Positions 13,888-50,000 of a DNA stretch of 64,000 nt are shown in pieces. Made by a program: the position numbers and the translations under genes. Position 1 is the stretch's first letter. The number at the start of each line of letters is the position of its first letter. Where the stretch lies: the IMG/VR virus record IMGVR_UViG_3300020578_000034, positions 23,842 through 87,841 of that record. One strand, given 5' to 3'. The notes under the pieces are model-generated. The model was not told the DNA's origin. It did not search any database and worked only from the letters and a program-made list of their open reading frames with translations. The DNA is from a virus (Duplodnaviria > Caudoviricetes).

Positions 13888-15624
13888 ATGAAATACGCCG
13901 GAACATACAACATAAAGTCGATGACGTCCGCCTACCACCACGCCCTTGGCGAACTGGCGATGATGGAGGAGGACGAGCCCGAGGACGAGGTGCTTCTGCC
14001 GATACCGCAATCGGAACTGTTCTACGCAAAATCGGCCATAGACGCGGTCCTCTCCGACTACGACATGATGTCAAGCGCGGTGCCCGACGGGATCATCCTT
14101 CACGACGCGAAGAGTATCGGTCCGAGTCTCGTCAATGAGCTGAAGGACGCACTGAACGAAATCCAGATCAAGGCCCTCGGGGCGACGATCGGCGGAGCCA
14201 GGCCGGCGGCCGGTGGCGGCGCCGCCGGGGACATGATCGACAGGGACGGAGATGGATACATCTACGACGGAACTCCGCAGGAGCAGAGGGTTCCGTACAA
14301 GCGCCGCGACGGCAAGCCGGTCGGCGGTGGCGCGCCCGAGGGAATGGAGGCGCGACGCAGGCAGTTCGTGCGTTCTGAAGCCGCCAGGCAGGGCGTGCAA
14401 CTCAACCGTGGCCCGAAACGATCGGAGCAGGAGAGAAGGTTCAGGACCGAGGCGAGAGCGCGATTCGACAGGATAGCGCTCGAGGGTGAGGGATTCATTC
14501 CCGCCGACAGAATAGAGGCTTCAGATAAGCGCAATTTCGAGAACCGCATGGGTGACGTCAACGCGGGAAGAGTTGACGATCAGGGCAGGAGCGGTTTCGG
14601 TTACGGTGGAGAGCCACCTCAGCTCAATCCGGGACAGCGAGGCAAAAGACCCGACACCTCCTTCGAGGACGCCGAGTATCGCAGACAGCAGGGAATGCGC
14701 CCCGCAGGAAGGCCCGTGGACAGGTTGCCAGGGGCTGGCGGACCAAGCGGGAGTCTCAACCCAGGACAACGAGGGGCCAGACCCGACACGTCAAATCAAC
14801 GCGCCGAGGACGCCCGCAATCAAGGCAAGCGCCCAGCAGGTAGACCCGTGGACAGGTTGCCAGGAGCAGGCGGACCAAGCGGGAGTCTCAACCCCGGACA
14901 ACGAGGGGCCAGACCCGACACGTCAAATCAACGCGCCGAGGACGCTCGCAATCAAGGCAAGCGCCCCGCAGGAAGGCCCGTGGACAGGTTGCCGGGAGCA
15001 GGCGGTCCCGGCTACGACGACTCGTTCAGGGACAACGAAAACCGCCGTCTGGAAGGCAAGCGCCCACCCGACACGTCCAACCAGCGAGCCGAAGACGCGC
15101 GCAATCAGGGCAAGCGGCCCGCCGGGAGACCAGTTGACAGGTTGCCAGGAGCAGGCGGACCAAGCGGGAGTCTCAACCCCGGACAACGAGGGGCCAGACC
15201 CGACACGTCGAACCAGCGAGCGGAGGACGCCCGCAACCAAGGCAGGCGCCCAGCCGGTAGGCCCGTGGACAGGTTGCCCGGGGCTGGCGGACCTGGTTAC
15301 GACGACTCGTTCAGGGACAACGAAAACCGCCGCCTGCAAGGCAAGCGCCCCGCCGACACTTCAAACCAGAGGGCCGAGAGCGCGCGTCAAGCCGGCGCTC
15401 GTCCACAAAGACCAGTGGACAGACTGCAAGAACCGGGTGGACCAAGCAGAAATCTCAACCCAGGACGACGAGGAGCCAGACCCGACACGTCGAACCAGAG
15501 GGCCGAGAGCGCGCGTCAGAATCGCGCGCGCCCGAATCGCCCGGCTGACAGATTGTCGGGGGCCAACAGAGCGCGCAGGTTCCCGAGGGGGCGAAGCGAC
15601 TACTACTACGGTGGCGAAGCGTAA
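13888..15624 (+). CDS. Leader-bearing protein with long Arg/Gly/Pro-rich tandem repeats (~578 aa)
   Basis: GGAGGG at 13879-13884 precedes the ATG at 13888 (the track start at 13846 is in frame). It carries IK-ALGATIGG and DRDGDGYIYDGTP leader motifs. The C-terminal half is repetitive. Confidence 0.8.
   Translation: MKYAGTYNIKSMTSAYHHALGELAMMEEDEPEDEVLLPIPQSELFYAKSAIDAVLSDYDMMSSAVPDGIILHDAKSIGPSLVNELKDALNEIQIKALGATIGGARPAAGGGAAGDMIDRDGDGYIYDGTPQEQRVPYKRRDGKPVGGGAPEGMEARRRQFVRSEAARQGVQLNRGPKRSEQERRFRTEARARFDRIALEGEGFIPADRIEASDKRNFENRMGDVNAGRVDDQGRSGFGYGGEPPQLNPGQRGKRPDTSFEDAEYRRQQGMRPAGRPVDRLPGAGGPSGSLNPGQRGARPDTSNQRAEDARNQGKRPAGRPVDRLPGAGGPSGSLNPGQRGARPDTSNQRAEDARNQGKRPAGRPVDRLPGAGGPGYDDSFRDNENRRLEGKRPPDTSNQRAEDARNQGKRPAGRPVDRLPGAGGPSGSLNPGQRGARPDTSNQRAEDARNQGRRPAGRPVDRLPGAGGPGYDDSFRDNENRRLQGKRPADTSNQRAESARQAGARPQRPVDRLQEPGGPSRNLNPGRRGARPDTSNQRAESARQNRARPNRPADRLSGANRARRFPRGRSDYYYGGEA
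14620..15560 (+). repeat. Coding tandem repeat, ~7 units of a 132-nt core interspersed with a longer variant unit
   Basis: The unit LNPGQRGARPDTSNQRAEDARNQGKRPAGRPVDRLPGAGGPSGS (44 aa; gagtctcaac at 14751 and 14883) is interspersed with a GPGYDDSFRDNENRRL variant at ~15004 and ~15289. Confidence 0.95.
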
Positions 15625-15636
15625 ACGAGCGAGTCA

Positions 15637-15840
15637 ATGAACGGCAGACCAAGCGGCGGGTACACCCGCGGGAACCGTGTTATGGGTTATGATAAACCTA
15701 CACAAAATAACGCAGTCAAATTGAAATATCACTGCATTGCGACGGGCGAGAAACGCCAGTTTCCATGCGGCAGTTGCGTCAACCACAAGGGTTGCCTAGC
15801 GACGACGATGCAATACAAGGAGCGAAAACATGGAACCTGA
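15637..15840 (+). CDS. Small Cys4 (putative Zn-binding) protein; may start at ATG 15682
   Basis: HCIATGEKRQFPCGSCVNHKGC resembles the C-x2-[TS]G-x6-C-x2-C-x3-C repeats of the next gene, and the ORF overlaps that gene's start. Confidence 0.5.
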   Translation: MNGRPSGGYTRGNRVMGYDKPTQNNAVKLKYHCIATGEKRQFPCGSCVNHKGCLATTMQYKERKHGT

Positions 15841-17806: not shown

Positions 17807-17816
17807 GGGGGTCGAG

Positions 17817-20800
17817 GTGACTCGCCTCGAACGACACCTGAGAAAAAGCCCGGGTGAGAAGTCACTGGGACCGACCATCGGCGGTGCGCCGAGGAACATG
17901 AACCCGTTCACCGCGAGGGACGCCGACATGGACATGTTGGTCCTGGAGGACATCGAGGCGGTCAACTTCGGTCGAGGAGTCCCGGACCCCACACCTGGCG
18001 GAGCCGCGGAGACGCCGTCGGCGCCAAGATTGAGATCGCCTTTCTACGCGACCAACGAGGATTTCGCCGTCGCGGCGATGTCGGGTCCGAATCGTCGTCC
18101 GAGCGCCAGCGAGGCAAAAGACCCAGGTGACATGAGGAATCCGGACGGCCATTTTCCGCGGGAATCCGGACCGATGTGGAGGCAGACGAGTTTCACGGCC
18201 CTGAACCTCGCGCCGAGGGAGCGGAGGAACACGAGCCCGGCTTCGGTCAACACGTATCTCCACGCCGAATGGACCGAGCCGTACTGGGACGCCGTCAGGG
18301 ACGACACGGGGATATGGAACTCCCCGCCACCGCCGGAGATGGAGGTCGAGCGCGCCATCTACGACGCAATGAAGAGAGAGACGATAGAGGTCGGCGGGTA
18401 CAACGTTCCGTTCCCCCAGCACCCGAAGGAGTCCGACTACGACCAGTACACGGATTCAACGGGCGCCACCGTCAGGCACCTCAATGCCACCCGAAGTTTC
18501 CCCTTCCGCGACAGGGAGAACTCGAGGTGGACGGACGGACACCCGCTGTACCACGCGACCCCGACCGGCTCGTTGCCGAAGATACTCGCGGAGGGGCTGG
18601 TCGCAAACGCCGAGCGTCAGCTGTGGTTCGGGGCGTCACCGACGGTGTGGAACGAGCAGTTCCCGCACAACGCCCCCCTTCGGCTGAAGTCACCGATCAA
18701 GGGAATGTCGTTCCTGCGGATCAGCCCGACCCAAACGATGAACGAGAGGCTCTCCCGCCTCGCGAAGGTCAGCGATGTCGATCGGGCAACGGTTCCCGGG
18801 TCCCTAGCGATAGATTCGGATGGGAATCTGATCGGGCCGAGGGACTCCCGGGCGCAAGTTGCGGTTGGTCTCCTGAGCGACGCCCTGTGGTTCAACGACA
18901 TCGAGATACCGACGGAAAACATCGAGGTTCTGAGTCAGACCGGAGAATGGATCCCGTTGTACAGGACGGACCTCTCGGACGTGGTTGCTGATCCCACGAG
19001 CGGGCCCGAGGCCGGGATGACGAACGAAAAGAATCGCGGCATCAGAAAAATCCTCTCGTCAATAACGAACGGCAAACACGGCGACGACGAGGGGGCGGAC
19101 GAACAAAAACCCGCCTCCAAGCCCCCCGCCGAGGTCCCGGTGGTGGCGCAAATACCCAACCCGGAACCGAGGATCAAATACTCAGACTCCTACGGCGGCG
19201 ACGACCTCATCAAGAACGAGCAGAGAATCGTGCGCATAGACCACGAGGGATTGGTGGCTGCGGGCCGCTGGGAAGACATCCACGGTGACCATTACGACTG
19301 GTGGGCGTACCCCATAGACAGGGGGAGCGGGCAGTACGGCGAGGCGTTCAACGTGGCCGGCGAGCCACTCCGGAGGTTGAGGGAAGACCCGGAATTCCTG
19401 GCCAGCCTCGCGCGGGAAATAGAGATACAGGCCCTCGCCCTTGGTTGGTCTTTGTACGACAAGGACTGGGTGGAAAAGCTCGACTGGGAGAACGGCCAGG
19501 ACTGGAGACGGGCCTACCCGACGAGGCTGTGGAAGGCAACCAGATCGGCGCAGATATTCGGGCTCCAGAGGGAGTTCGAGTCGATGCTCGCGTTGCACGA
19601 CTCGCTCGCAGCCGGGGGGGTGCGATTCAACCACGAGGACTACTGGGAATCACCCGGGACGGTCGACGACGTCCCGTCGCTGGGAAAATCGTGGAAGGAG
19701 AGGCAAGAGGAGTGGAGACAGCGGTATCCCGCGAGCGACGCCACCAGCTGGACGAGCCCGCACCGCCCGATGCCACAGGGTCCCAAGCGGGGTTCCGACG
19801 ATTCGCAAATGACGCTCCTGGAGGAGGATCGGGCGTGGGACGCCTACGACAGCTTCACAACCCCCATCTTCCCGGTCGTGTCCGACGCCGAGGAGCTAGC
19901 CGACATTCTGTCGGAACCCGACGAGATGATCGAGTTCGGTTACCCGTACGAGCGAATCGACAAAGAAACGAGGCAGCTGATCGCCGACGACATCTTCTTC
20001 GCCGTCTCCCTGTTGATGGACGGAGAGTTCCCCGACGAGGAGTTCACGGACAGGTTGGAGTCCGCAGAACAAATGAGGCGATACGCAAACGAGCAGGAGG
20101 GCCTGTACCCGGACGACGGGGACATCCTGTACGCCCTGGCCGACGCGCTGGAGAACCCCGTCTCGTTGTACGAGGACGCCGTCTACGAATCAACCGACTC
20201 GCCCGACGGCGAGGCGGGGATGGCGCGCAAACTGCGCACTACGGCAGAAATGGATGAGTTGATGAACGAGGCTGCGAGGTTGTACAACGAGGGGAAACCC
20301 CGGATGGACATAGCAAGGGAAATGAATCTTCCCCGGGACACGATCAGCAACCTTCTGCAACGAGCAAACGCGCGCAAGCTACTTCGCAACTACAACCCTC
20401 GAGGGTCCGGAAAATTCGGGAACACCGTAACAACCCCCGAAAACATCGCCGCCGCCGCCGACAAGTACAGGGAGGGAAAGACGTTCGCCCAGATCGCCGA
20501 AGAACTCGCGGTCCCGGGAAGCTCCGTCATAAGACTCGTTGCGGAGGCGAGACGCCTGGGACTGGACACGGGCCCCCGTCGCAATCGAACTTCGTCCGAG
20601 GTTGAGGAACTGATGCTGGAGGTGGCGATCAAGTACGAAGAAGGAAAGTCATTCCGCGAAATCGCGCAGGAAATGGGCGTCAATATAAATACTGTGCAAA
20701 ATATGGCAAACAGGGCCGTGAAGCTCGGTTTGATTCGGAGGGACAGAATAGAGAGAGCGAGCGACGCCGCCGATGAGTTGACGAAAGAAATAATGACCAA

Positions 20801-23800
20801 ACTCGGGCAAGGCAAGAGCCAGCGACAAATCGCGCGGGAACTGAACGTTCCATACCTTCGGGTCACGAACTTGATCAAGAGGGCCAGACGAATTCTTGCT
20901 CCAGACCGAAGAAAAGCCAGGTTGATGAACTCATCCGAGTCCCCCGGGGACTCGGGAGCCCCCGACGGCGAGGCGGGGATGGGAAGACGCTTCCGGGGCA
21001 TGGACGAAGAACCCGATTATTCGGATATGAGTTTGAGCGACACGGAGATACAGAACTTCATAGAGTCCGAAGCCGACAAGGTCACCGACGACCTGATCTT
21101 CGGCAGGGAGGTGTCAAGGGCGTTCACCCAGGGAGAAGACGAACCCGTCCCGCCATCTGTCATGCCAGTGAGACAAATATCAATCCCAACGCTGGAGGAA
21201 ATTCCGGAGGACCTAAAACAGTCGTACATCAAGTTGTGGGCCGGAGGCGGGAGCTTCGTCGCCATAAATCGGCAGCTCGGAATATCCAACCTTGACGGCG
21301 CCGCCATACAGACGGCGCTCCTCAGAAGCGGGGAAATCCTCCCGAGGACCAAGCGCACCTCGGGGGACTCACTGCGTCTCACCCCCGAAGACGAAAGGGT
21401 CTTCGTCGAGTGGTCCAACGAAGGGGCCGATATGGGCTTGCTGGCATCGGTGTTCGGACTCACCGCCGGGCAGACCGCCGAGATCGCCAAAGACCTGAGA
21501 AGCCGGGGATTGATCCGCCGACGATTTCAAAAAAACTTTTTCACCGACAGTGAGCGAGACGCATTCGCGACCATCGTGAAGGAGGAACGAGCGAAAGGAA
21601 GAGGCGTCTGGCCGCGTTCCGTGCTCAGGGCCCAGCGGGAGCTCGGATGGTCCAAGCAAAGAGCCCAGGCAATGCTCTTGTGGTACAGAATGCAAGTTAA
21701 GTTCGGTCATATGCCCGGCATCAAGACCCAACTGTCCGATTCCGACATGATGAGGTTTGCCGCGCGATGGAACGACGGAGTGCCCGAGGAGCAGATCGCG
21801 CGGGAGTTCAACGTCGCAGAGGGTTCCGTCAAATGGTTGGCTAGCAAGGTGAGAAAGCGGGGAATACGCCTCAAGCGTCGCAACAGCACGGACTTGTCCG
21901 CCACGGACGGGTTGCGACGGAGTCCCAGACTTTCTCGGGAGTGGCTCGAGGGAGTAGAAAACGGCACGACATCGGGCGGGTACCAGGAGTTCATGGAGGG
22001 GATGCAAAAACGAGCGGTGGCACTATACCGAGACGGGAGGACGTACGACCAGATCGCCAAGGAACTCGGAATCACCGGTGCTGACGCCAAGTACCTGGTG
22101 GACAGGGCCGTGACATCCGGTGAGAAGTCCCCACGCCGTAGGGGACCAAGATCAAAGGTCGCCGCCGCGCTCGGCATCACCGTGGACGAGCTGGTTGAAC
22201 GGATGGCGGCAAGATACAACGAGGGCAAGACAGGCGCCGAGATGGCCACGGAATTCGGCACCACAATCGGCAACCTTAATTATTTCCTGAGGGTGGCGGG
22301 CAAAAGGGGTTTGTTGAAATTGAGGACGAAGCGAAAGAAGCACCCAGTCAAACGCAACGTCACGGGAGCTTCCTCCCGAAAAACGAGACCGACCGACGGA
22401 TCCGACGGCGAGGCCGGGATGTCGGGCCCGGATTCTGCAGATCTGCCGGACGGAATAGACGGGGAACTAGAGGATTACGTCTACGAGGATCCGGTGTTCG
22501 GTTTGTCCATACAGCATCCTCTCTTCCTCTGGTTCGCCCGGATCACCCCGGAGGTTGTCGACTTGATAAACGCGTCCTTCGCGAAAAAACGGGCGTCGGC
22601 GGACGAAGCCCTGAGACAAAAGAATTGGGGAAGGTACATATACCTACACGAACGCCCCTACCGCATCGACGCCTTCGAGGACATCATGGACGAGCTGACG
22701 GACCAGGAGTACTGGAGCCGACTCTCGGACATATGGGTGGACAGCGAGAACATCGGGCAGCAACCCGATCGTTGGAGGAACCTGCTACTGAGCGAACGCG
22801 GCTCGCGCGAGTCCTTCATGACGGAGGACGAGCGAGCGGAATTCGCGGCGTTGCAGCCACAGTTCACCGTGTACCGCGGTTATTCGGAGAACGACCAGGA
22901 GGAGTTCGGAATGTCGTGGAGCACCGACGCGGGAGTGGCCGAGTGGTTCGCCAGGAGATTCGCAAGGGAAGACGACAAGATCTTCATGGAGGAAATGGAG
23001 GTCTCCAAGGACGACGTCTTCGCGTACCTCACGCGGCGTGGCGAGGAGGAGATAATCCTCGACATGCGCACCGCGACCGGTGGGACGGCGATCAGGCGGC
23101 AGTTGAAGAAGTACCCCAACACGACGAGCGGCCCGTACGCGGCAAAACTCAGGAAACTCGGCGTAAGGGCGGACGGCGAGGCGGGGATGTCCTCCCGAAA
23201 AATCCCCAAATTCAACGGCGGCCACAGCAGCAAGGGGAGGGGGACTCCGTCGGGTGACGGCAAGGACTTGGCGATGAGGGACGTGGCGGACAGCGCCATA
23301 GTCGAGCTGGCGAACGACGAGAGGAGCAGTTCGCGGACGACGCTCGAGACGCTCGGGTCGTACCGGGCCGGGAGCATGGTCGTGATGCTGGCGAGAAACG
23401 GTGAGCTCCGGGGCATCCCGCTGAGGGACGAAACCATCCAGGCAATAACGAAAGCCCACGACGACGGTGCGACGTTCGTCGTCGGGGACATGCCGGGCGT
23501 GGATTCGCAGTTCGTGGAATTTTTGGACAAAATCGGGGCCGACTACACGATCTACCATGCGGGGAGTTCGCCGAGGTTCCGTCCGCAACCGCCCGACGCG
23601 CGCGGGGACGCGCCGTCCGAACTCCTCGCGCGCGTGACCGACGAGGACGCGCAGCTCAGTCTCCTGTACTCGGTGCCCGGGGTCGCCGCCAGCGTCAGGA
23701 TGAGGAGCACCGACGGTGCGCCCGTCGCCCCGGGCAAGAACGCAATCATGAAGCCGTACCTCCTGGCTCCGCACATAGACGTGAACGGTTTGGACGCGTC

Positions 23801-25190
23801 GGACCCGGCAATCCAGTCCCTTTCACCGGCACTGAAGGCCGCCGGGTTGGGAACCTACAAAGTCACCGGGCACTCGACCCCCAAGGTCCAGGGACCGGTG
23901 GTGAAGGAGTTCGCGGACAGGCTGATAGGTCCCAGTGCCGTCGCCGACGCCGTGCTCGGAACGTTCCCGACCGCGGACGAGTTGCTGACGATATACGCAG
24001 TAAACGCACTCATCAGGGCGAGGGCGGAGTACCTTTCCGACTCCGTCCTCAACGCGGACCAAGTAAACGAGGCGATCCTGTTCGGAAATGTCATGCTCGT
24101 GGGCCCGAAATTGCCCCAGGACCTGTGGGACATCCCGCAGGTCGGCACCTCCTTGTACCTCGACCCGTTCAGCTACTTCGGGAACGATTCCAACTTCCTC
24201 AAGGCCGTGATCGACGCGTTGCCGGAACGGGTCAGATCCGGGCTGGCCTTCTCCCCCGCCGCGGAGAGGACACCTGGCGTCACCTATCAGGACCGGTCCT
24301 GGGGGGACACCTCGCTCTTCGAGGGCATCATAATCAGGGAAGACGACGACATCTCCAGAAGGTTCGCCCCCATGATCAGGAAGCAGGCGGGAATAGTGCT
24401 GGACCACGCCAGGCGACACGGCGAGCTGGCGAGGAAGTGGGCGCAAACCGCCTACGACCTCATGAGGGAGGCTGGCCTGACGGACGCAGAAGTGGCTTTC
24501 GTTGTCAACGAACACTGGAGAAAAGCATCAGCGTTCAAACTCGCCACGGTGCAACCGGGGAACGTGCTGGGTCACGCGGCGAGGCTGGGCGTCAAGGCGT
24601 TCTCCTCGAGGTACTCGCCGATAAGCCAGGCCATCACCGGCGAGGGCCCCCGCGAGGAGGAGGATTTCGGCCTGCACGAGTTCTTCCACCACTTCCTGGG
24701 CCAGGGTTTCACCAGGCACGGGGAGTACGTGGCGTTCAGGGGTCCGGTCGATCTGATCGATTCCTACCACGGGCACATGCAGTGGGCCTGGAACGACACC
24801 CGTCAGCTTGGGATGTTCGTCTCCAGGATCATGACGCAGGAGTTTGGCCGCGGCAAGACCGACCAGCTGGATCTCGGGTATTCGCGCACATTCCATGACA
24901 CCATCGGCAGGGCCATCTACGACAGGCTGAAGGAGATGCTCTCCTCGGCCGAGGACAGGCGAGAAATAATGGACCAGGTGTTCCCGGAATTCCACGGGTC
25001 GCCCAGCGAGGACGAGGCGAAGATCAAGGCGCTGATCCGAAGGCAGTTCGCGGGGCGAGACCTTGAAAGGGTCCGCCAATTTGCGGATTTGATGCCCGTC
25101 CTCAGACTGCTCACGGTGCAGGACCTGCTGGTGCCGAAGATGTACTACCCCTACGGGGGAACGAGTAAAATAATCGGGGGAAGCAACTGA
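17817..25190 (+). CDS. Polyvalent protein / putative polyprotein 2 (2457 aa, GTG start)
   Basis: A shared leader is followed by modules separated by AAM/EAGM Mets at 18078, 19017, 20220, 20979, 22419 and 23187. The modules are Tpt1/ART-like, HYDWWAYP (OGFr/DUF1810-like), two HTH arrays, an R-S-E ART, and SLOG-like plus HExxH. Confidence 0.9.
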   Translation: MTRLERHLRKSPGEKSLGPTIGGAPRNMNPFTARDADMDMLVLEDIEAVNFGRGVPDPTPGGAAETPSAPRLRSPFYATNEDFAVAAMSGPNRRPSASEAKDPGDMRNPDGHFPRESGPMWRQTSFTALNLAPRERRNTSPASVNTYLHAEWTEPYWDAVRDDTGIWNSPPPPEMEVERAIYDAMKRETIEVGGYNVPFPQHPKESDYDQYTDSTGATVRHLNATRSFPFRDRENSRWTDGHPLYHATPTGSLPKILAEGLVANAERQLWFGASPTVWNEQFPHNAPLRLKSPIKGMSFLRISPTQTMNERLSRLAKVSDVDRATVPGSLAIDSDGNLIGPRDSRAQVAVGLLSDALWFNDIEIPTENIEVLSQTGEWIPLYRTDLSDVVADPTSGPEAGMTNEKNRGIRKILSSITNGKHGDDEGADEQKPASKPPAEVPVVAQIPNPEPRIKYSDSYGGDDLIKNEQRIVRIDHEGLVAAGRWEDIHGDHYDWWAYPIDRGSGQYGEAFNVAGEPLRRLREDPEFLASLAREIEIQALALGWSLYDKDWVEKLDWENGQDWRRAYPTRLWKATRSAQIFGLQREFESMLALHDSLAAGGVRFNHEDYWESPGTVDDVPSLGKSWKERQEEWRQRYPASDATSWTSPHRPMPQGPKRGSDDSQMTLLEEDRAWDAYDSFTTPIFPVVSDAEELADILSEPDEMIEFGYPYERIDKETRQLIADDIFFAVSLLMDGEFPDEEFTDRLESAEQMRRYANEQEGLYPDDGDILYALADALENPVSLYEDAVYESTDSPDGEAGMARKLRTTAEMDELMNEAARLYNEGKPRMDIAREMNLPRDTISNLLQRANARKLLRNYNPRGSGKFGNTVTTPENIAAAADKYREGKTFAQIAEELAVPGSSVIRLVAEARRLGLDTGPRRNRTSSEVEELMLEVAIKYEEGKSFREIAQEMGVNINTVQNMANRAVKLGLIRRDRIERASDAADELTKEIMTKLGQGKSQRQIARELNVPYLRVTNLIKRARRILAPDRRKARLMNSSESPGDSGAPDGEAGMGRRFRGMDEEPDYSDMSLSDTEIQNFIESEADKVTDDLIFGREVSRAFTQGEDEPVPPSVMPVRQISIPTLEEIPEDLKQSYIKLWAGGGSFVAINRQLGISNLDGAAIQTALLRSGEILPRTKRTSGDSLRLTPEDERVFVEWSNEGADMGLLASVFGLTAGQTAEIAKDLRSRGLIRRRFQKNFFTDSERDAFATIVKEERAKGRGVWPRSVLRAQRELGWSKQRAQAMLLWYRMQVKFGHMPGIKTQLSDSDMMRFAARWNDGVPEEQIAREFNVAEGSVKWLASKVRKRGIRLKRRNSTDLSATDGLRRSPRLSREWLEGVENGTTSGGYQEFMEGMQKRAVALYRDGRTYDQIAKELGITGADAKYLVDRAVTSGEKSPRRRGPRSKVAAALGITVDELVERMAARYNEGKTGAEMATEFGTTIGNLNYFLRVAGKRGLLKLRTKRKKHPVKRNVTGASSRKTRPTDGSDGEAGMSGPDSADLPDGIDGELEDYVYEDPVFGLSIQHPLFLWFARITPEVVDLINASFAKKRASADEALRQKNWGRYIYLHERPYRIDAFEDIMDELTDQEYWSRLSDIWVDSENIGQQPDRWRNLLLSERGSRESFMTEDERAEFAALQPQFTVYRGYSENDQEEFGMSWSTDAGVAEWFARRFAREDDKIFMEEMEVSKDDVFAYLTRRGEEEIILDMRTATGGTAIRRQLKKYPNTTSGPYAAKLRKLGVRADGEAGMSSRKIPKFNGGHSSKGRGTPSGDGKDLAMRDVADSAIVELANDERSSSRTTLETLGSYRAGSMVVMLARNGELRGIPLRDETIQAITKAHDDGATFVVGDMPGVDSQFVEFLDKIGADYTIYHAGSSPRFRPQPPDARGDAPSELLARVTDEDAQLSLLYSVPGVAASVRMRSTDGAPVAPGKNAIMKPYLLAPHIDVNGLDASDPAIQSLSPALKAAGLGTYKVTGHSTPKVQGPVVKEFADRLIGPSAVADAVLGTFPTADELLTIYAVNALIRARAEYLSDSVLNADQVNEAILFGNVMLVGPKLPQDLWDIPQVGTSLYLDPFSYFGNDSNFLKAVIDALPERVRSGLAFSPAAERTPGVTYQDRSWGDTSLFEGIIIREDDDISRRFAPMIRKQAGIVLDHARRHGELARKWAQTAYDLMREAGLTDAEVAFVVNEHWRKASAFKLATVQPGNVLGHAARLGVKAFSSRYSPISQAITGEGPREEEDFGLHEFFHHFLGQGFTRHGEYVAFRGPVDLIDSYHGHMQWAWNDTRQLGMFVSRIMTQEFGRGKTDQLDLGYSRTFHDTIGRAIYDRLKEMLSSAEDRREIMDQVFPEFHGSPSEDEAKIKALIRRQFAGRDLERVRQFADLMPVLRLLTVQDLLVPKMYYPYGGTSKIIGGSN
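18540..18960 (+). other. ART-fold (Tpt1/KptA-like) domain
   Basis: PLYHATPTGSLPKILAEGL...LWFG...FLRI...IPTENIEVL resembles the LYHGT...IL..GL...IP...I pattern. Confidence 0.5.
20220..22418 (+). other. Tandem HTH array (~9-10 units over two EAGM-delimited modules)
   Basis: Repeated [YW]xEGK[ST]xxxIAxE[ML]x[VIL] units, e.g. LYNEGKPRMDIAREMNL, KYREGKTFAQIAEELAV, KYEEGKSFREIAQEMGV, LGQGKSQRQIARELNV, RWNDGVPEEQIAREFNV, LYRDGRTYDQIAKELGI and RYNEGKTGAEMATEFGT. Confidence 0.85.
22860..23065 (+). other. R-S-E type ADP-ribosyltransferase-like domain
   Basis: FTVYRG (R at 22875), GMSWSTDAGVAEWFA and GEEEII appear in the canonical order. Confidence 0.65.
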
Positions 25191-25461: not shown

Positions 25462-28400
25462 ATGTCGCCAACCCCGTTCAGAATTCCGTTCAACGCGAAA
25501 ATCGTCGCCAGGCACGGAACGACGTCCGTGTACGCGCTCAGGGACGGGCGCCTCGCGTTCGTCGACCACACCAAGAACCGCACCTTCCTCGACGGGAGCA
25601 GGGACGTCGGGACGGGGACCTACGGGTCGGGTCACAACTCGGCGTGGGCCGACTCGCGCATCGTCGCCGTCGCGTCCAAGGGCGGCTCCGCCTCGTTCGC
25701 GCAGACCAAGGCACTCAGACCGAAACAATCCAGGATGCCGCAGGAGGCGCCGGACCAGCCCGGGGAGGAGATTCCCGACGAGGCTTTCTCGCGACTGATG
25801 CCGATGATCCCGAAGGAGTTCCTTGATTGGGCGGCGTCGTACGAGATCGGCGACCCGCTGCCCCCGATGATGCCGGGTTACGGCGGGAAAACGCTGTGCA
25901 ATAAATCCATAAACGACACCTCCTACTCGCAGGACGACTTCGGGGTGGACCAGGTCGTCGAGCGCGTCCTCGCGGACATGGGTTTGCCAGACATAAACCC
26001 CGCCCTCGCCTTCGCCCCCGAGATGGAGACCAAGGGCCTCCCGCGGATGGAGCAGAAGGGCATCCTGGGCAGGGAGATCAGGGACCTGGCGCGCAACATC
26101 GCCGACTCGATCCTCACGGCGAGGGGCCTGTGGAAGGACGAGCTGAACAAGATTCGCTGCGGGTCGGGACCGAACGCCAACAGGTTCACCGACATCTTCG
26201 GGACCGGTTGCGACGTGCCGGGCGCCGACACGGCCGGCAACATCGTCGGCGCGATAAGGGCCGGGGTGGACGTTCCCGGTCCGGTGGACGAGGTGGCGGG
26301 GAGGATCGAGGGGGCGAGGGAGAGCGTCGCCGACGCGGCCGACGGAATGGACTTCCCGGGCGGAAAACCTTCCCTCGGCGAAAGGCTCAGGACGGCGCTG
26401 ACGAGGGTCCGGGGCGGGCACACGCCGCACTACGTGGCCGACATGCCGAGCGACATTGACCCGGCGGCAGGCATGTCAGACGTGTTGAGCAGGAGATCCG
26501 ACAAGAGGGGAGCGTTCCAGTTCGTCCGATCTCTAGTCAACCGCAATAAACGGCGCGAGCGCGGCAAGAAGGGGGAGAAAACCCACAGATCCGCGGAAGA
26601 GATGGCCAGGGAGGCCTTCGCCACGCGCGAGTACCGCGACTGGGAGCAGGACTTCACGCTTAGAAAAGGCAGGCTGCCGAACAGGGGCGAGAAACTCAAC
26701 TGGTTGGCCGAGCACGTCGGATGGAAAGGACAGATCAGGGACGCGGCCGGCAACCCCGTGACGGACGAGTTTGGCAACCCGGTGGGAAGCTTCGGCGGGT
26801 TGGCCGACACCGCGGTCGTGGACGGGGAAGTGACCGACATGACCCATTTCGAAGCGATGGTCGAGCAGGTAGTGCGCAACCCGAACTTGGTGGAGGGCGG
26901 TAATTTCGACATGCTGAGCGAGGCCAAGAAGAGGAAGATCAGGGAGGAGGTCGAGAGGAACATATACGACTACGGGCTCCAGACCCTGTTCGCCATGAAG
27001 AACGCCGGCGGGCCGGAAAAGATAGAGCAGATCCAACCCGACGGGAGCAGGATCCTGGTGGACAACCCGGAGCACAAGAAACGCTTCGCCGAGGTAATAC
27101 CGACCCATTTCCGCATAATTCACGAGACAGACCCCAGCAACCGGAACCCTTCACTCAGGGATGCGGCGGTGGTCACCGCGGTCAACGGTTTTGAACCGGG
27201 CATCGATGACGTGATCGACTTTGTCCCGGAGATGGGTACAGATCGGCGGATGACTGCGGCACGACCGCTCACGGCGGGCAGGCAGCGCTATGGAAGCGTC
27301 GCCGGTTCTATGCCGTTGTATGTGCATGAGAACCAGACCAGTGGAGGCGAAATTCCGTTCGTGGCCTCCATAAGCCTTAATCCGCTGTGGTTCATAAACC
27401 AGCAAACACAGAAGGACAAGCTCGCGGGCTTCGGCGATCAACACCTGGGGATGGACATGAGCAGGGAGGCGTTCTGGGCGCACACCGCCGACCACGAGCT
27501 GAACCACATAGACGACTTCGCGCAGAGGCTCGGGAACAAGCTCGGATACTGGGGGGAACTCGGCGGCGGCCGGGAGGAGTGGATGCAGAGGCTGTCGCAG
27601 CAAACGTACACGCGCACGCCCACGGGTGGTCGTTGGTCGAACGTGATAGACCTCCGCAAGGACGCGGCCAACTACACCTTCCTCGGGCAGCAGATCGCGG
27701 AACTCGACGCAAAACTGGCCACAGCCACGACGCCCTACGAGAGACAGAAGGCGATTTGGTTCTTCTACATGCAGAACATGAGGTTCGACGAGCAGACGAT
27801 GTCCGACTTCGCGAGGTGGATGAACAGATCGGGCGCGGGTTTCACGCCTGGTAAGCGCCTTTCTAAGGACGAGCAGGCCGCGATGCTCAACGAGATCTAC
27901 GAAAACCTGCGGGCGCGCGGCTACGCCGAGGAGACCGGGGTGCCGTCCTTCAGTTTCTGGCAAGACATGATCGACACGCCTCTGGGTTACTGGAACCCAG
28001 CGACGGGCACGTTCGAGTTCCCTCTCGACCCGCGCACCGGGCTCCTGAACCCGTACCCGCTGAACGTGATGAACATGCAACCGAGATGGACGGGAAGAAG
28101 AGACGCGATGAATCGTCCCTTCTCGGACAACGTCGCCACATTTCCCGATAACCTTGATCCGTCACGCTTCGGGCCTGGACAGCCCCCGTTCGGGCAGGCG
28201 AGGCTCGACAACTCCGTCTCCAACCTCCTGCACGGATTCATAGGGGGGACCTACGCCGGCGAGAACGACTATGAATTCGCGGCGGAGCTGAGGACGCATC
28301 TGAACAAACAGGGCGCGCTCGCCGACATCAGGGAGTTCCTCGCCGACCCCGCCCGCAACATACACCAGCTCACCGAAGCCGACTTCATGACGCTCGTGGC

Positions 28401-31400
28401 CAGATACGTGGGGAAGGACGAGGTCTACAGACTTTACGGGGAACCAATGCCTGGACCACGAGCACTGCCCCCTGGCTTTGTCGGCCCGGGAGGCGGGGCA
28501 CCCCCGCCACCTGGCGCTGGCGGGCCACCTGGCGCTGGCGGGCCACCGGGCGGAGCACCAGGAATACCGACGATCCCCCTCGGGCCAGCCTCGCCACCGA
28601 GGACGCCAACGGGTGGGGGAGGCGGCGCCGCCCCGACCCCATCCTCCCCAAGATTGCGCGGAACCGCCACCAGGCCGACGATTCCGATGGTGCCACGAGC
28701 CGACGACCCAGACATTCCCACTCCCGACGATACGACTCCGCCCCCAGCCTCCCCGCGGTTGCGCGGAACCGCCACCAGGCCGACGATTCCGATGGTGCCA
28801 CGAGCCGACGACCCAGACATTCCCACTCCCGACGATACGACTCCGCCCCCAGCCTCCCCGCGGTTGCGCGGAACCGCCACCAGGCCGACGATTCCGACGC
28901 GTCCGTCGGACGAAGGTCCAGAAGCTCCCGGCGACGCCCCGGAGCCCGGGGCTCCATCGAGGGTCCGTGGCACGGGAGTCAGGAGACCGACCAGGCCGAC
29001 GACCGACGACGATCTCACGGAGACGACCGACGACGATCTCGTAGAACCGACGGTCAGACCTGAAACCGATGCGGATCGCGTTTCGCCGGAAAGACGCAGA
29101 GCCGACGCGGACAGGGAAAGAAGGTTGCGCGAGCTGTTCGACGATGTAGAAGAGACTCCGGCGGAGCGGGAGGAATTTGAAAAAAGGGTAGAAGAATCCC
29201 GCAGGAGGGCGGAAGCCGTGTATTACTCGGGCCACTACGGGGACGTCGAGCAAGCAGTGGAAGATGCAAAACGCAACATCTCGTCCGATGATCGAATCAA
29301 CCCTAGAGATCGCGAAAGGCGCGTTCGCACAATGGACGAACAAGTTGCGGCGAGGCGCAGAGCGATTGATCGAATTCCGGTCGCAACCGATCCAAAAGAA
29401 CGTAGAGGGCAACAAATAGTCGCCGCCGCGCTAGAAGCGGAATTGATGTATAAAGCTGGGCAAATAGATTACAGAACCAACGAGCGCCGACAAGCGGACT
29501 TGTCGGTCCTGGCCGACCTAAACGGAACGCCACTCTACCGGGACGACCAAGGCATGTTCAAATTGGAAAGCAGCGTTCCGGAATGGCAGAGGACCGAGGG
29601 ACCCGACTCGATCGACGATTCGGCCGAATCCGTCGCTTCTAGAACGGCCTTGGCCGAAACAATGTTCGGAAAGAGCGAAGCCTCGGAACTCTTGGGCACT
29701 CGTTCTTCCGAGACCGACGGACCCACCGCCGATTCGCAAGCGGACAGGTTGAGGCTGAACCAAATTCGCGAGGAACGAGTCAACGCCACGGCGCGCGTAG
29801 CGGACGCGGAAACTCGCCACGACGAAGCCCTCAGGAGGGCGAGGCGCACGGGATCCGATCCCGACAGGGGAGGGGACGGCGACCCGGCGGCGTGGGCGGA
29901 TTACAGGGCTGCCTACGAAGAATTGAACGACGCGGACGCCGAGAACGCCAGGCTGCTGCGCGAGTCGAGGGAGCTTGAGGATCGGATACCGAAGAGCGAT
30001 ACACCGACGCCCGCCACGACCAGGGATCCCTCGAGGAGATCTTACGAACGACCGGAAACTCCCGAAGGCATCATCGTGGAGGGCGAAACCCCGCAACGGC
30101 AGATACGAATGACCAACCAGACCACGGGGGAAATAATTTACGTGGATCCGAGCAACGCTCGCATCATGGATGAAGTCAGGGCGGAGGGCTTCGCCCCGGA
30201 CGTGAGGCAACCCACCGCTCCCGCAAGGAGACAGGCCAGTGGGCGAGAAAAACCGCGAACGAAACCCGTACGCACAGTTCGCAATCAAAAACCAGATGAG
30301 CCCGATTGGGTGAGACGCGAGCGGGCCCGACGTGCTCGGGCGGGATTGGCCGACGATATTCCCGGATACGACGACGAGCCGGATGTGGGAATGGCGCCGC
30401 CGACCAGGAAGAGGTCGGATTCCGACGGGGTGAGGGAGTTCCTGGAGGAGGGCGACGGGGCCTTCATGACGCCCGAGCAGGCCCGCCTGCAAAGGGACGG
30501 AGCCGTCGAGCGCCGGGAGTCGGCCATCTCGCAGCGCGAGAGGTTGATAAACGAGAGGGACGGGGTTGAGAACGGCGTCGTCGGACGCAACCTGACGGAC
30601 GATCAGGCGCAGAGACGGGTTGAGGAGCTGAACCGCCAGATAGCCGAATTGGAGAGAAGGATAGACGACCTCGAGAGGACAGCGGAGTTGTTCTCGGAGC
30701 ACGCACGAAAACTCGAGGAGGGAATCCCCATCAGGGGGAGACGAGGTGGCGACGCTGAAGCAGGTATGGGCCGAACGTACGAAACCTTGGTCGGCACGCA
30801 CGCAAACGTCGTCTCCAGAAAACGAGACGAGATAGCGAGGGCGCGACAAACGCTCGACGGGATAGGCACCCGCAGGAACGGGGGTCTGGTGACCAGGGAG
30901 GAGGCCAAGGCGGTCGCCGCCGCGTTCGAGGACCTGTTCTCCGGGGACATGAGGGTGCAGAGCAATTTTGAGGGGAGGCTGAGAACGGAGTTGCTCAGCA
31001 ACGGTCGCACCATGGTCAGGTTGGATGCGCAAGTGAACTGGGACGAGATGGTCCAGGTCCAGGACCTGACGAGCATCCCCATAACCATGCAAATAAAGTC
31101 CGCCGACGGCAAAACGATTTACGGGTACGCCACGAGGAGGCTGGAGATAGGCGACGACGGAGTCACCGTCCATCACGGTTCCCTCACCATCTCGCCGGAG
31201 TTCCGCGGCATGGGGATAGCCAGCGAGTTTAACGCAAGGAACGAGAACCTATACAAAGCCCTCGGGGTCAGGAGCATAACGACCAGCGGATCCTCCTCCT
31301 CGATGACGAGCACAAACAACCCGTTCGAGGACCAGGTGATCGGAACCGGCGCAACCCACTGGGCCCGCAACGGGTTCACCTGGAGGGACGATGACGCAAA

Positions 31401-40071: not shown

Positions 40072-43000
40072 GACCTTCTTCTCCACGATCACCGACTCGG
40101 CGACCAACACGACGTTCGCCGTCGTCGTCGTCGACGGGGGGAGGGTCACCGCGCACGGGTCCATGAAGCAGGGCAAGGACTGGGCGGACTGGGTGAACCG
40201 GGGCAAGAAGTCGGTGGACCAGGTCTCGTTGTCCCTCGATCCCTCGTTGCGCATGTCGAAGTTCGTCCCGTTGACGAGGGACAACCTGATGTCGAGGTAC
40301 TCATCCTTCGGCCCGACCACCGTCAAGGGACTGGCCAGCATCATAGAGAACAAGTCCGTCCCCGAGCCCCTCGCGGCGAAGTCCGAAAAGCAGGACGCCA
40401 AGGCGGCGGATGTAAACGAGGATAAGGCTCCGTCGACGGAGCCGGAAAACGAGCCGGAATCCGAGCCGATAGCGACGTGGCTGCTCGCCGACGTCGGGAT
40501 AAGCATGTTCGACGTCCAGATCAAGGCGGAGGCAATCAACTTCAAGGCGAGGCAATTCGCGAGGAACATGGACTTCGCCTCTTTCGTGACCTGCGTCAAG
40601 GGGTCGAGGGCGACCGTCTCCGAAGGTCGTTGGAGGACCATGCCCGTGGTCGGCCGGCAGGTGTCGGACGTTCTCGACAAGTTCGACAGGAAGATCAAGA
40701 CGGGCGCTTTCGCGCATCTCGACAAGCAGGGGTACTTCGAGAAGTTGCTACCGATAGGTATGGCAAACCTGCCCCCGCCGCACCTCGTGCGGAACGCTGA
40801 CTCCGACCCGTTCATATACGAGGGAATTCCGTACATAAACGGCGGGAGGGGGATACTTGACCCCACTCCGCCGGGGACCAATCAGGTCGTTCGCGGCATC
40901 AGGTCCGTCGGCGGGGTTCTCGCAGAGATAGTGGACAAGCCGTCGAGGGTCAGAAGAATGACGAGGCGCGAAGACGAGGCGGACCGCCTGAGGTCCATCA
41001 CCGCGACGACGAACGACCTCAACCGGATAATCCCCGACGCGCGGAGCGGGGCGACCGGGCAGAGCAGGCTCAGGAGGAGGTTGTCGGCGCTCACGGACGC
41101 GATAGAGCCGGCGAACGTCTCGCCGTTGCGGCTTGATCGCCCGGCGACGAGCAGGGAGAGAAGGAGGGTGCTCGAAGGTCAGGCCCGCATCGCCACGCAG
41201 GAAAACCGAACCAGGCGCAATTTCACGGCAGACGCAGAGGCCGCGATGAGGAATGAGAGGGGTGACTCCCCGGAGACGCCCTCGGTGGTCAGGGCTGCTG
41301 AGCAGAGGACGCCGGGCGAGGTTGTGCCCAGCTCGGGTGACCCGACGCGCGGCGAGAGGGGGAGCGACCCGGGCGGGAGCGGGGGCGGCCTTCTCAACAG
41401 ACTCTCCAGGCGATTCTCCAGAATCTCCAATCGGATCGCCACCGGCGAAGACAAGACGCCAGAGCCAGACTTCGACGACAGGACCGAGATACCGTCCGCG
41501 CCAGTCGAGACGCCGCGCGTGGTGTCGGAGGACCCGTGGGTCATGGACAGGGACACGAGGGAACGCTTGCTCGCGGCGTTGGTCAAGGCCGTTCAGCCGG
41601 GCACGTACGCGACGTTCAGCTCCAGATTCGGGGAGGACGAGGTGGACTGGCCGGATTTCACGCCGTCCGAGCAGTCGGCGCTGATGCGCGAGCTTGGGTA
41701 TCGTCGCGACGAATTGCTCAACATCGTGACGGAACTGATGACTCCCGAGTTTTCGGCGGACAAGGACTACAGAAGCGACGGGGTTGTCACCCCGGAATCG
41801 GTGATGGAAGCCATCGCAAACGATTTCGTGTCGTTGAGGCCGGGTGGTGTGAACCTGTACGCCGACGTGATGTCTCTCGTGGCGATCAACGACATGCTCT
41901 CCTCGAAGGACTTCGAAACAGAAGCAAGGGCGTCCGCGTGGAGGATGATCGACAACAGGAACAGGAGCGTCGTGTCCAAGAGGGCGGACATTCAGCGCAG
42001 GGACGTCAGGGATGCGGGCTCGACGAGAATTCAGGGATCAATCGGGGAGAGGACCGTCATAGCGGGGGAATCGCCGAAGCAACAGTCTCCAATCGGGCCG
42101 ATGCTCTCCCTCAGCAAACTCCAGCCGATGAGGCTCAGGTACCAGCCGGAGAAGCCGGTCGGGATGAAAGAACTTTCCGAGTACTCCGATGTGGAGCGAG
42201 AGGCGGTACTGAGAAGCGCCATAGAGATGAGGGGCAACATCGTTGACTTCCTGCGCCAGAACTTGGGCATCCCGGCTGACACGGAGTTGACCGAGGACAT
42301 GCTGGCGGATTGGATGTCAAGGCTGGACGAGCAGGCCGCGAAGCGGGTCGGCATGTACGCACACAACCTGATCGTCCTTGACGGCATGATTCCATCGCTC
42401 ATCGGCTCCGACAAAAACGAAGCAGATGTTCAGTGGTCAAGTCTCACCGAACCGGCGAGGAACAGGATCCTCTCGAATGCGAGCGTGGGGCTGGTGCCGC
42501 AGGTTCCCAAGACGAACGTCCGCAAGACCAGGACGCGGCCGCCGAAGCCGCCATCCACACCGCAGACCGGTCCGACGGCGCCACCGAATGCTCCGACAAA
42601 AGTTCCCGGCGTGCCCGTGCCGATCGGCATGTCGACCGCACCAGGGAAGATTGACGCCTACAAGGGCGGCGTCGTCGAAGACTCACTCGACGTTCTGGAT
42701 GTCACGGACCAGGTCGTTACATGGACCCTCGAGGACGGAACGCAGCAGACCAAACCGATCAAGTCCCTGGGCGCAAACAATCAGTACGACCTAACCAACG
42801 CGGTCATTCAGGACGGCATCACCTACGTGATGGAAAGAAACCTCGGCATCTACAGGGACCCGGCGTCCGGGCTGTACCTGACCGACTACTCGAGGGTTCC
42901 GATATCGGTGGACACGACGATAACGCCCGCGTCGAGGCTGCTACCGGTGCAGAAATCAAGGAGCATGCCGGTGCGAAGCTATCCGCAGATCACCCTGAGG

Positions 43001-46976: not shown

Positions 46977-47050
46977 CGTCCCCGACGCTTACCTTGAAGT
47001 ATCCTTATCGGTACTAAAAGCGCGCCCAACACGCGAGCGGACGGGAAAAG

Positions 47051-50000
47051 ATGGACGACTCAACAGAACAGGGCGATTGTTGTCCTATCTCGGGGGCGGA
47101 AATCGAGCAGAAGGGCATCGCCTTCGGTCCCAGACAGGTCCGTCCGGATAGTTTTGACGCATACGTTGACAAGGAATCGGCCCGCGCAAGGGCGCGGATG
47201 CTTGGGTGCATCGGAATACGACAATACAGCTCGACGGCGGGTGGCACCGTCTGGATGCCGTGCAGCAACGAGTCCGATTACAGGAAGGTGACCGGCCAGG
47301 ACAATTTGTCGCGGAGACAGCGCAGGAGGATGCTAAAAACCTTCTTCACCGACGGCCTGGAGACCAAGGCCCTCGGCTCAACCATCGGGGCAGTCAGCGG
47401 TCAGGTGAACACGAACCCGTTCACCGCCATAGACGCAGACCTGGACGGTCTCGTACTGGAGGGCCTGGCGCATATCAACATGGGCCGCGGGGTGCCCGAC
47501 CCTACGCCAGGAGGGGCGCAAATTCCATCGGCGCCGACGTCACCCCTTAGGCGGATGGACAGGTCTCCGTTCCAGGTCACCAACGATGATTTCGCCATTG
47601 CCGCAATGTCAAATAGGACGCGGCCGACGCAGGAAGTTCCAACGCCGCCCGTTCGCAAGCGCGATCGGAGAATGAATCGTCCGAGTGCGAAGCTGCGAAT
47701 GGAGCAGTACAGGGACAACGTGGAGGCGGCGCTGAAGGACGACCTGTTCGCCAATTCCTGGCAGAAGGCCGTCGCGGATTTTATCGACGCGGACGCATTG
47801 GGGGACGACGACTCCGACCAATACCTCAAACAAAACCTGTACTCCATCGTTGAGGACGTCGCCTCGAGGGTTGAGTCGGCGGTCGACGAGCAACCAGAGT
47901 TTTCCGTGCCGAGGGGTCGCACCCGAAGGGACGCCGCGGACGCAACTTCGGCGCGCCTGACGGCAAAGGTTCTCGGAACGGTGTCCGAATTGATGAACAA
48001 TCCGCCGGACGCCATGACCGGGAGGGACGACGTTGTCAGAAGACTTACGTCGTCGTTGTTGGAATCCGGAGCGAGGAGGGTTGCGGACACGGGCGGGAAG
48101 CCAGGCGTGTGGGCCTTCCTGATACAGGCGATACTCGGGGGCGCGATCGGAGTCCAGGGAGGCTGGGAGTTGCTGGCGAGGATATTCGGAATAGAGAATT
48201 CAACTGGCTGGATCCCCCACCCAACCGGCCGCAGCCTCGAAATCCTGTCACCCAGCCTTGCCAGACAAAGGTCCAACGAGGCAAGGTCGAGGGCCCTCGA
48301 GAGAGTCACGAGGACCATGGACGCCCTGCGCGACGCCGGTTTCGCGATAGCCGACGCCGGGGACATCCCGTCCGTCGCCGACGACATCGCAGAGGTATTG
48401 GACGGAGACAGGTCAACCGACCTCCCGGGTGACCTGTTGCCCAAGGACACCGCCAAGTCCAGCTCGCTCGACGAAGTGATCAGGAAAATGAGGGAAGCCA
48501 CTGGCATCAGGGACAGCGTGGCGACCAGGAGGCGCCGAGATCCGCGGACATACGTGGAGGAGGATTTGATCACCAGGAATCGCATGGATCTCGTCGGCAT
48601 TCCCACCGGGATCCTCGACGTCTTTGATTCCTCGTCGGTCCCCGCACCTACGCCGTCCGACGGTTCGGCTGCGAGATTGATCGCATCCGGTGGGGTCGAC
48701 GGCCTGAATCCGATGAACGCCAAACTGCTGTACGACGCCATGAGCGACCAAAACTTCCTGCGAACCTTCGTCGCCCCGACCGACTCTCCGTACGCCGCGC
48801 AACTGGCGACCCTTGTCGAGCAGGGGAGGCTGCCGAAGGTGGCGGCGGCGATACTCGAGATGTCGCCGGAGTCAGTGGAGGATTTCCTTGCGGTCAACCC
48901 GAGACCACTGATCCTGTCGGCAAGATCGGCCAGGAAGAAGTTGAGACCCGCCGGCTCGTGGGTGACCCGCATAGACCACGATCCGTTTGAGGTCGCGGCC
49001 CACCTCATGCGGGCGAAGGACTACCACATTTCGGCGATAGCCAACGGCTCGGACTCGCCCGTCCTCCTCGACGCCGTGGACGAGCTGGTCGGCAACAACG
49101 CCTCCGAGACCTCCGCCATCTTCTCGGCGATGGTGGCCAACAACAAGCAGAGATTGGCGGACGCATACGACGGGTCGTTGCAACTGGCGCGGTCGGGGAA
49201 CGGGCTCCTGATGGCGGCGAGAAACCTGATATCAAACGCGACAGAGAACGATTCAACATGGAGCGCCTCACGCAACGCAATCACCCAGGCGTCCAGGGCG
49301 ATGGTCTCCGCAGGAGACGTCTCTGCGGGAATGACGAACACCGCGTCAAGGTACGGAAGGAACTACCCGAGGCACAGACGCAAGAGCGGCGACTGGTCGC
49401 CAATAGCCAACAAGATACGAGACTCGATCAAGCGCTACAAGTCCCGGTATGGCGCCCCAGCGGCGAACTCGGCGGACTTGGCGAGGTTCGTGGACTTCTC
49501 CTACCCCGAACTCCTCGACGAGGCGGCCGAGCTGATCGACCTGATGAAGCAAAAAATAGAATTCGGATCCCTCGCCATGGCCGATTACGCAAGCGACGGG
49601 TGGAGGAACAGGGACGTCGCCGAGCTGGCCCTTGACGAGTTTGACCCGACGAACCTTGAGTCCATATTTGACCCGGGTAGCAGGATGGGCCTGCTGAAGG
49701 CGATCGGCGTCAACCTGGCGGCGGCGGCCAAGATGGCGCCGTCGCGATCCGAGCGAGACGGGGTGATGGACATCCTCGACGAGGTGAACTCCTGGAGCTT
49801 CACCGTCCTCCCGCTGTACACGGAGCCGAGGTCCGTCACATCGCGTCGCAGAGGAATTTTCCCGAGCGTCTCCGCCGACGCCGAGGCTGGCATGACGGTC
49901 AACAGGGGGGTCCCGGAGGACATCAGGCAAACGCTCATGTCAAGATCCGCACCGCTCGGATCCGGAACTGAGGGAACGCCGAAGATCCGCATGAGAAGAA

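Follow-up and report, generated by a model that had tools for sequence, protein, structure and literature searches.

The DNA considered here is a window of 64,000 nucleotides, the closing part of a virus contig that measures 87,841 bp (IMG/VR record IMGVR_UViG_3300020578_000034). It carries a series of giant genes whose products share two short elements: a conserved motif of about 35-50 residues, here called the tag; and a repeated eight-residue peptide, here called the junction. The original prediction, made from the letters alone, described five copies of the tag as a leader common to five different proteins, and proposed that this leader docks unrelated cargo in the prohead before being removed.

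The head module

The window covers the head module of an actinophage-like phage that has not been cultured. Upstream of it, the minus strand encodes the large terminase subunit (TerL) along with genes for proteins with Rad52, ParB, and PAPS-reductase domains, and the plus strand encodes a 739-residue portal protein with a Phage_Mu_F (MuF) domain at its carboxyl terminus. The module reads in the order TerL; portal-MuF fusion; S78 protease and DUF6321, fused to the first giant protein, gA; the giant genes; and the HK97 capsid gene. In gA, the amino terminus contains a Peptidase_S78 prohead protease domain (residues 25-179; E 4e-11; phrog_80, E 2e-26), followed by DUF6321. From gA through the capsid gene, all genes in the window lie on the plus strand:

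1..13839, plus strand: gA, carboxyl-terminal 4,612 residues of a 5,469-residue open reading frame (ORF) whose amino terminus lies upstream of the window; nine strict E[AG]GM junctions in the window part
13846..15624, plus strand: gB, 592 residues; bears a divergent variant of the tag
Between gB and gD, plus strand: gC, 658 residues, same module
17817..25190, plus strand: gD, 2,457 residues, candidate cargo polyprotein; helix-turn-helix (HTH) / sigma-70 region 4 repeats at residues 815-1030
25462..34317, plus strand: gE, about 2,950 residues; three strict junctions, without the tag
34314..37055, plus strand: gF, 913 residues
Between gF and gJ, plus strand: two small genes, then gI, 697 residues
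40061..45628, plus strand: gJ, 1,855 residues
46029-46976, plus strand: gL, 315 residues, between gJ and gM; DUF3721
47051..62806, plus strand: gM, 5,251 residues, candidate cargo polyprotein; DUF3721, NUDIX, and nine strict junctions
63183..63998, plus strand: HK97-type major capsid protein, truncated where the contig stops

Among cultured phages, the closest belong to the actinobacterial myoviruses, with portal identities of 34-44%: Gordonia Chidieberevirus, Gordonia GMA6, Brevibacterium Cantare, and Streptomyces Gilgamesh. A related IMG/VR record of 173,962 bp has direct terminal repeats and is rated complete.

A tag shared by giant proteins

Copies of the tag in this genome were scored with a profile built from 37 database relatives:

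14167..14277, plus strand: variant tag in gB, IKALGATIGG...DMIDRDGDGYIYDGTP, starting at residue 108; conserved among orthologues
17853..18002, plus strand: tag in gD, residues 13-62; profile E 5e-28
34452..34559, plus strand: tag in gF, residues 47-82, PPPHLVRNAD sub-type; profile E 1e-20
40766..40876, plus strand: tag in gJ, residues 236-272; profile E 4e-18
47360..47515, plus strand: tag in gM, residues 104-155; profile E 4e-24
G000:C1:22936-23115, some 0.7-0.9 kb before the window begins: sixth copy, gA residues 556-615; profile E 4e-22

The five peptides quoted in the original prediction are encoded where it placed them. As a single repeat of five copies, the claim stands for gD, gF, gJ, and gM, which fall under one strong profile; the gB copy is divergent and scores below significance with it (3.1 bits, E 2.6). 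When all the proteins are compared with one another by BLAST, the same four copies emerge together with the one in gA; over these five, pairwise BLAST and profile E-values range from 1e-17 to 1e-28. The gB variant is nevertheless conserved among gB orthologues, and in three of five related records the gene that follows the capsid gene also has the gB-type sequence, KALGATIGG...DMIDRDGDGxIxDGTP (E 1e-4 to 5e-3). The gB copy is therefore a real divergent sub-type rather than a chance resemblance.

The motif is linear, extends over about 45-50 residues, and consists of three boxes: K[AS]LG.TIGG; NP.TA.[DN]AD.D..[VI][LY]EG; and N.GRG[VI].DPTP.G. Ten residues are invariant in 45 aligned copies (D30, D32, E37, G45, R46, G47, D50, P51, T52, and P53), and the flanking sequences are unalignable. 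The second box includes a conserved [DN]-A-D-x-D followed by Glu, an acidic cluster for which calcium binding is possible. The resemblance to a DxDxDG calcium-binding loop noted in the original prediction is exact in gB (DRDGDG) and gM (DADLDG), but the Gly is missing in the other four copies. EF-hand_6 on the gB variant, at E 0.19 and 12 bits against a cut-off of 25, is sub-threshold, and is the sole Pfam row touching any copy.

Tags start at residue 13 (gD), 47 (gF), 104 (gM), 108 (gB), 236 (gJ), and 556 (gA), positions that depend on the ORF starts used in this analysis. The description as an N-terminal leader thus suits gD and gF only, the copies in gM, gB, gJ, and gA lying further inside. 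What precedes the tag differs: DUF3721 in gM; a conserved 235-residue region in gJ; and the protease, DUF6321, and two more conserved regions in gA. Homology between gD and gM behaves as the original prediction had it, extending beyond the tag (60% identity over gD residues 15-93) and ending five residues past an A-A-M site at 86-88.

Structure prediction for the tag alone (45-row alignment) gives no secondary structure and a mean predicted local distance difference test score (pLDDT) of 53. Such predicted disorder is typical of a docking peptide that folds on its partner. A prediction for gA residues 1-621 (14-row alignment) is unusable, with a mean pLDDT of 36; and a complex of the tag with the full-length capsid protein of a relative (G001) scored 0.00 in two runs without controls, which is uninformative either way.

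One further partial match lies at the contig start (G000:C1:514-549), in a plus-strand ORF at 1-906 (residues 172-183) opposite a 1,722-residue minus-strand ORF. It resembles the GRGVPDPTPFG box (13 bits, E 0.003), and may be chance or part of another carrier.

Distribution and specificity

A profile of the five strong copies, searched against 1.84 billion representative proteins (E <= 1e-3), returned 39 matches, of which 37 are true. The remaining two (P0042 and P0044) were rejected as spurious: a repeat protein and low-complexity sequence. True carriers range from 220 to 6,391 residues, and each contains a single motif. The core starts at or before residue 60 in 18 of them, at 61-150 in nine, at 151-330 in seven, and beyond 330 in three; in 35 of the 37, its position falls in the first 15% of the chain. 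A pattern scan of IMG/VR found 46 loci with conserved gene order around the motif, and these contain 68 ORF matches of at least 40 bits, all on the head-module strand. Five related records contain 21 strong copies, every one of them placed between portal and capsid wherever the record has both genes.

A scan of 185,579 species genomes gave one match, on a 13-kb contig of an Actinomycetota metagenome-assembled genome (L058) that is almost wholly one 3,443-residue ORF. This match hints at an actinobacterial host. The contig is 49% GC, and its ORF has the tag near the amino terminus and nine GI[AS]G[RKN]M-type junctions.

The main motif matches nothing in Pfam, PHROGs, PDB sequences, or the cultured-phage collection. 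Neither the gD leader nor the gB variant finds a match by tblastn in 50,697 phage records, and ESM Atlas returned no usable match to gD residues 1-128. Other BLAST similarities among the proteins (gE/portal, gB/gE, gA/gE, gA/gJ, and gA/gM) were discarded as low-complexity stretches rich in Pro, Gly, and charged residues.

Non-orthologous copies within one genome are 69.4% alike (n=43 pairs), compared with 64.8% between genomes (n=312; permutation p=0.0025, related genomes not being independent). This small though significant excess supports a common partner that the copies of one genome would share.

The motif is very probably a real and specific signal of the head module.

A junction peptide in the giant proteins

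The giant proteins show a 6.5-fold enrichment of the tripeptide A-G-M, which stands in the context of an eight-residue junction, [GSP]-D-[AG]-E-A-G-M-[SATG]. The strict form, E[AG]GM, occurs 27 times in the window (100-61843), compared with 0.59 expected from composition. A position-specific scoring matrix finds 32 sites (13 in gA, five in gD, three in gE, ten in gM, and a weak one in gI), all in coding frames, and none in the three minus-strand frames. Glu codons at the junctions (20 GAG, 8 GAA) follow background usage (71% and 29%); it is therefore the peptide, and not the DNA, that is constrained.

Relatives have hyper-enriched junctions of their own: SDTGxM, SDSGAM, PSGSM, GPVGxM, DTGRM, GISGxM, PTASM, and GI[AS]G[RK]M. 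All variants consist of a small residue, any residue, Met, and a small residue, with a cross-lineage core of [GA]-x-M. Moreover, gains and losses of whole modules in gD orthologues fall exactly at junctions: module 803-1055 is absent in P0007, and modules 1056-1791 are absent in L003. Strong enrichment, peptide-level conservation, and coincidence with module boundaries together make it probable that the junctions are protease sites.

The capsid protein has a long, delta-like and coiled-coil-like amino-terminal extension. GRNGANM at residues 114-120 (GANM, 63531-63542) is found where this extension should end. In 45 sequences, N119 and M120 are invariant, and G and A are conserved in at least 90%; two cultured relatives have the Met as well. 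GRNGANM is a candidate maturation cut site with Met; it has no tag nearby. Given the junctions, this capsid sequence, and the presence of a prohead protease in gA itself, the giant ORFs are most simply read as polyproteins cut in the prohead.

The first junction-type site past each strong tag is as follows:

18072..18080, plus strand: gD, FAVAAM/S, residues 86-88
34683..34691, plus strand: gF, DGPMAAM/T, residues 124-126
41240..41248, plus strand: gJ, ADAEAAM/R, residues 394-396
47600..47608, plus strand: gM, FAIAAM/S, residues 184-186
gA, residues 765-767: PEAGM, conserved, where the other four have A-A-M

All five strong tags sit in the first fragment, with a junction-type site 24-153 residues downstream and no conserved junction upstream of any of them. 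(A junction-like A-G-M at gA residue 552, before the tag, was dropped, as it is not conserved in orthologues.) On cutting, the gA protease fragment would consequently keep its tag, and the cargo modules downstream would be released.

A proposed model: docking, then dicing

From the motif, its distribution, its gene context, and the junctions, we infer docking, a partner, cleavage, and a fate for the tag as follows. Inside the assembling procapsid, the tag would tie gA, which bears the S78 protease, as well as gD, gF, gJ, and gM, the cargo polyproteins, to a single shared partner, perhaps the portal-MuF protein or the delta region of the capsid protein. Cutting by the prohead protease at [GA]-x-Met junctions (here D-[AG]-E-A-G-M; A-A-M for the first after the tag) would follow, freeing about 35-40 cargo modules from the tag.

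These steps differ in strength. That the tag is a signal for prohead incorporation is the most likely interpretation of the sequence comparisons: it is conserved while the cargo diverges; it is borne by the protease protein and by cargo alike; and its copies resemble one another within a genome. The full sequence of docking followed by dicing is about evenly poised between right and wrong. More tentative again is the proposal that an uncultured actinophage-like clade gives over 45-65 kb of the head module to cargo polyproteins, and that the tag loads protease and polyproteins, which the S78 protease dices into 35-40 freely shuffled effector cassettes injected with the DNA. The original idea of a prohead address on unrelated cargo is partly supported: it gains from the portal-capsid context, from the protease fused upstream of one copy, from the single copy per protein, mostly early in the chain, and from the junction-type site after each strong tag; it loses from the untagged gE and the internal position of most copies.

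Several observations weigh against this interpretation. The tag lies away from the amino terminus in four of six copies. The gE protein has three strict junctions and no tag; the tag is therefore not needed for junctions, and another loading route must exist. No strict junction occurs in gB, gC, gI, or gL, all of them members of this module (gI has a single weak site). The complete relative G004 has only three tag copies. Tag similarity within a genome could stem from gene conversion, again with the proviso that related genomes are not independent; and an invariant Met followed by a small residue also fits in-frame internal initiation plus Met removal. Lastly, cargo functions are almost all unrecognized, only the HTH repeats and one NUDIX having been identified.

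Alternatives

Two other roles would keep the tag inside the developing head. It could be a self-association or metal-bridged element, through which amino-terminal fragments co-assemble into an internal core as the acidic cluster binds Ca2+ or Mg2+. The acidic residues in 1-3-5 spacing and the Glu are invariant or nearly so, gM and the gB variant have an exact DxDxDG, copies are homogenized within one genome, and no separate scaffold gene is recognized. Yet the loop Gly is missing in four of six copies, the sole EF-hand signal is sub-threshold and in gB only (E 0.19, 12 bits against 25), the motif is predicted to be unstructured, and the capsid protein's own coiled-coil-like extension could serve as scaffold, all of which leaves this explanation unlikely. 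The tag might instead be an exosite for protease recruitment or substrate recognition, bringing the S78 protease to the polyprotein rather than the polyprotein to the prohead. Such a role would account for a tag placed always just upstream of the first junction, and in cis behind the protease domain of gA. It seems quite unlikely, however, given the sites that have no tag, namely the three strict junctions of gE and the candidate site of the capsid protein, and given that a single tag would have to serve up to 13 junctions across 5,000 residues.

The remaining explanations dispense with either cutting or a virion role. If the D-A-E-A-G-M sites were in-frame internal starts, with GAGG about 5 nt before ATG, translation would yield nested products and the tag would stay in place. 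The invariant Met with a small residue after it obeys the rule for Met removal, and GAG GCN GGN ATG does contain GAGG; but the ratio of GAA to GAG equals background, indicating no selection for GAGG, and the variants of other lineages (PSGSM, PTASM, GPVGxM, and DTGRM) come without a Shine-Dalgarno-like sequence. Since the capsid protein also conserves x-A-N-M at the expected maturation point, and the first polyprotein has a prohead protease fused to it, internal initiation is improbable. Least plausible, and very improbable, is a shared stretch without any role in the virion: a tract left by recombination or gene conversion, or else a signal that acts once the DNA has been injected, such as one for localization in the host. 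Homogenization within genomes is what gene conversion would produce, and the analysis found no partner for the tag. Against this stand ten invariant residues in 45 copies with unalignable flanks; confinement of the motif to one gene module, one strand, and one copy per protein; and a position before the first junction that is kept across five non-orthologous genes.

If the tag and the junctions do work in this way, they explain a cargo of about 16,000 residues per set, the size of the ORFs, and the swapping of modules at junctions, and tailed phages would have a use of polyproteins so far undescribed for them. In the tag there would also be a ready-made handle for loading foreign proteins into HK97-type capsids. 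The motif itself is a searchable marker for packaged proteins in metagenomic phages.

Recognized modules and neighboring features

Few modules resemble known domains. Residues 815-1030 of gD (20260-20910) contain repeated units like HTH / sigma-70 region 4 (Sigma70_r4_2, E 2.5e-23), and residues 4714-4844 of gM (61190-61582) form a NUDIX hydrolase module between two junctions (Pfam E 1.7e-9; PDB 2fml, E 1.3e-5). Searches of PDB sequences found nothing for gD, gE, or the window part of gA, and only a NUDIX protein for gM. DUF3721 is present in gL (46029-46976) and at gM residues 40-74 (47168-47272); in L021 and L027, a gL-like region is fused ahead of the tag in a gM-type protein.

Other features are repeats and insertions. 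In gB, a unit of some 44 residues (RPAGRPVDRLPGAGGPSGSLNPGQRGARPDTSNQRAEDARNQGK) is repeated in tandem about three times within residues 280-400 (14680-15050). Only some gA orthologues have a Cys-rich insertion (CWPGYKQVG.KKGK.G.MVPNCVP...CCP; L002 3850-3990, gA residues 190-235).

The interval between gD and gE (25190-25465) contains a 66-residue ORF, a TATAAT-like box, and a ribosome-binding site, maybe an internal promoter within the block of giant genes. A gD-gE fusion by readthrough or frameshifting was rejected in view of these intervening elements and the ATG; gE is a separate gene that has its own ATG and ribosome-binding site.

Two cultured phages present an analogous case, one within reach of experiment; in Gordonia phage ChisanaKitsune, gp22 and gp23 have in common an amino-terminal peptide of 25-30 residues. 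A short peptide ([IV]R..R[TD]..G...YG.PIG..IT or VRD.E.WG.PYGTPITPG) is shared by gp22 (residues 12-40) and gp23 (residues 9-37 and 474-500) of L049 (NC_071006.1), and by gp11 (residues 18-44) and gp12 (residues 181-207) of L050 (NC_071014.1). It is common to unrelated head-module proteins (an ADP-ribosyltransferase, an 'HNH' protein, and hypothetical proteins), and weak matches occur in mycobacteriophage protease-MuF fusions.

Comparison with known systems

T4 and a few other systems are known to use capsid-targeting peptides. In T4, the targeting sequence comprises about 10 residues at the extreme amino terminus, and operates with a gp21-type protease and a separate scaffolding core. The two cases are alike in having a short common peptide on unrelated proteins of the head interior, a site for the prohead protease after it (a candidate site here), and a proposed removal after loading. 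They differ in several ways: the motif here extends over 35-50 residues, with starts that range from residue 13 to 556; the protease is Peptidase_S78, not gp21-type; and the candidate sites end in Met, not Glu, in cargo polyproteins of 900-5,500 residues.

Short peptides that are attached to a protease or cargo and bind the inside of an HK97-fold shell include the targeting region of the HK97 protease, the carboxyl-terminal capsid-binding tail of the herpesvirus protease-scaffold UL26, which a maturation cut releases, and the cargo-loading peptides of encapsulins. The order of elements in gA (protease, linker, tag, junction) recalls HK97 gp4 and herpesvirus UL26, with S78 at residues 25-179, the tag at 556-615, and the junction at 765-767. 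What sets the present system apart from gp4, UL26, and encapsulins is that one tag is spread over five different giant proteins. A literature search, with subscription journals largely outside its reach, found no description in phages of such a tag or of Met-junction polyproteins; within the same limits, no shared tag is described for HK97/S78-type phages of Actinobacteria or for proteins this large.

Proteolysis of many head proteins would have a precedent in phiKZ and SPN3US. According to passages of one account, many of their head and ejection proteins are cut by the prohead protease at a short consensus, which removes amino-terminal propeptides (PMC10052503). In SPN3US the motif is A-X-E, of which one propeptide may contain several copies, and all the cuts reported in those passages yield amino-terminal propeptides (PMC10052503). 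Here, by comparison, about 30 junctions run through the giant ORFs from end to end, and these end in Met and do not conform to A-X-E. A common conserved docking motif is a second difference, none being described in the SPN3US passages of that account (PMC10052503).

In gene class, the system resembles the polyvalent proteins of Iyer et al. 2017, which, in the passages that treat the matter, are packaged via MuF or portal fusions and processed by embedded peptidase domains (PMC5512222). As described there, these too are huge, mosaic, multi-module proteins encoded beside head genes and predicted to be packaged and injected (PMC5512222). In the present proteins, which lie in a virion-gene context and have modules delimited by junctions, Pfam and PDB searches recognize only HTH / sigma-70 region 4, NUDIX, and DUF3721. 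The proposed route into the head is different: MuF here is fused to the portal and is found on none of the cargo, which has instead the tag and a repeated junction peptide.

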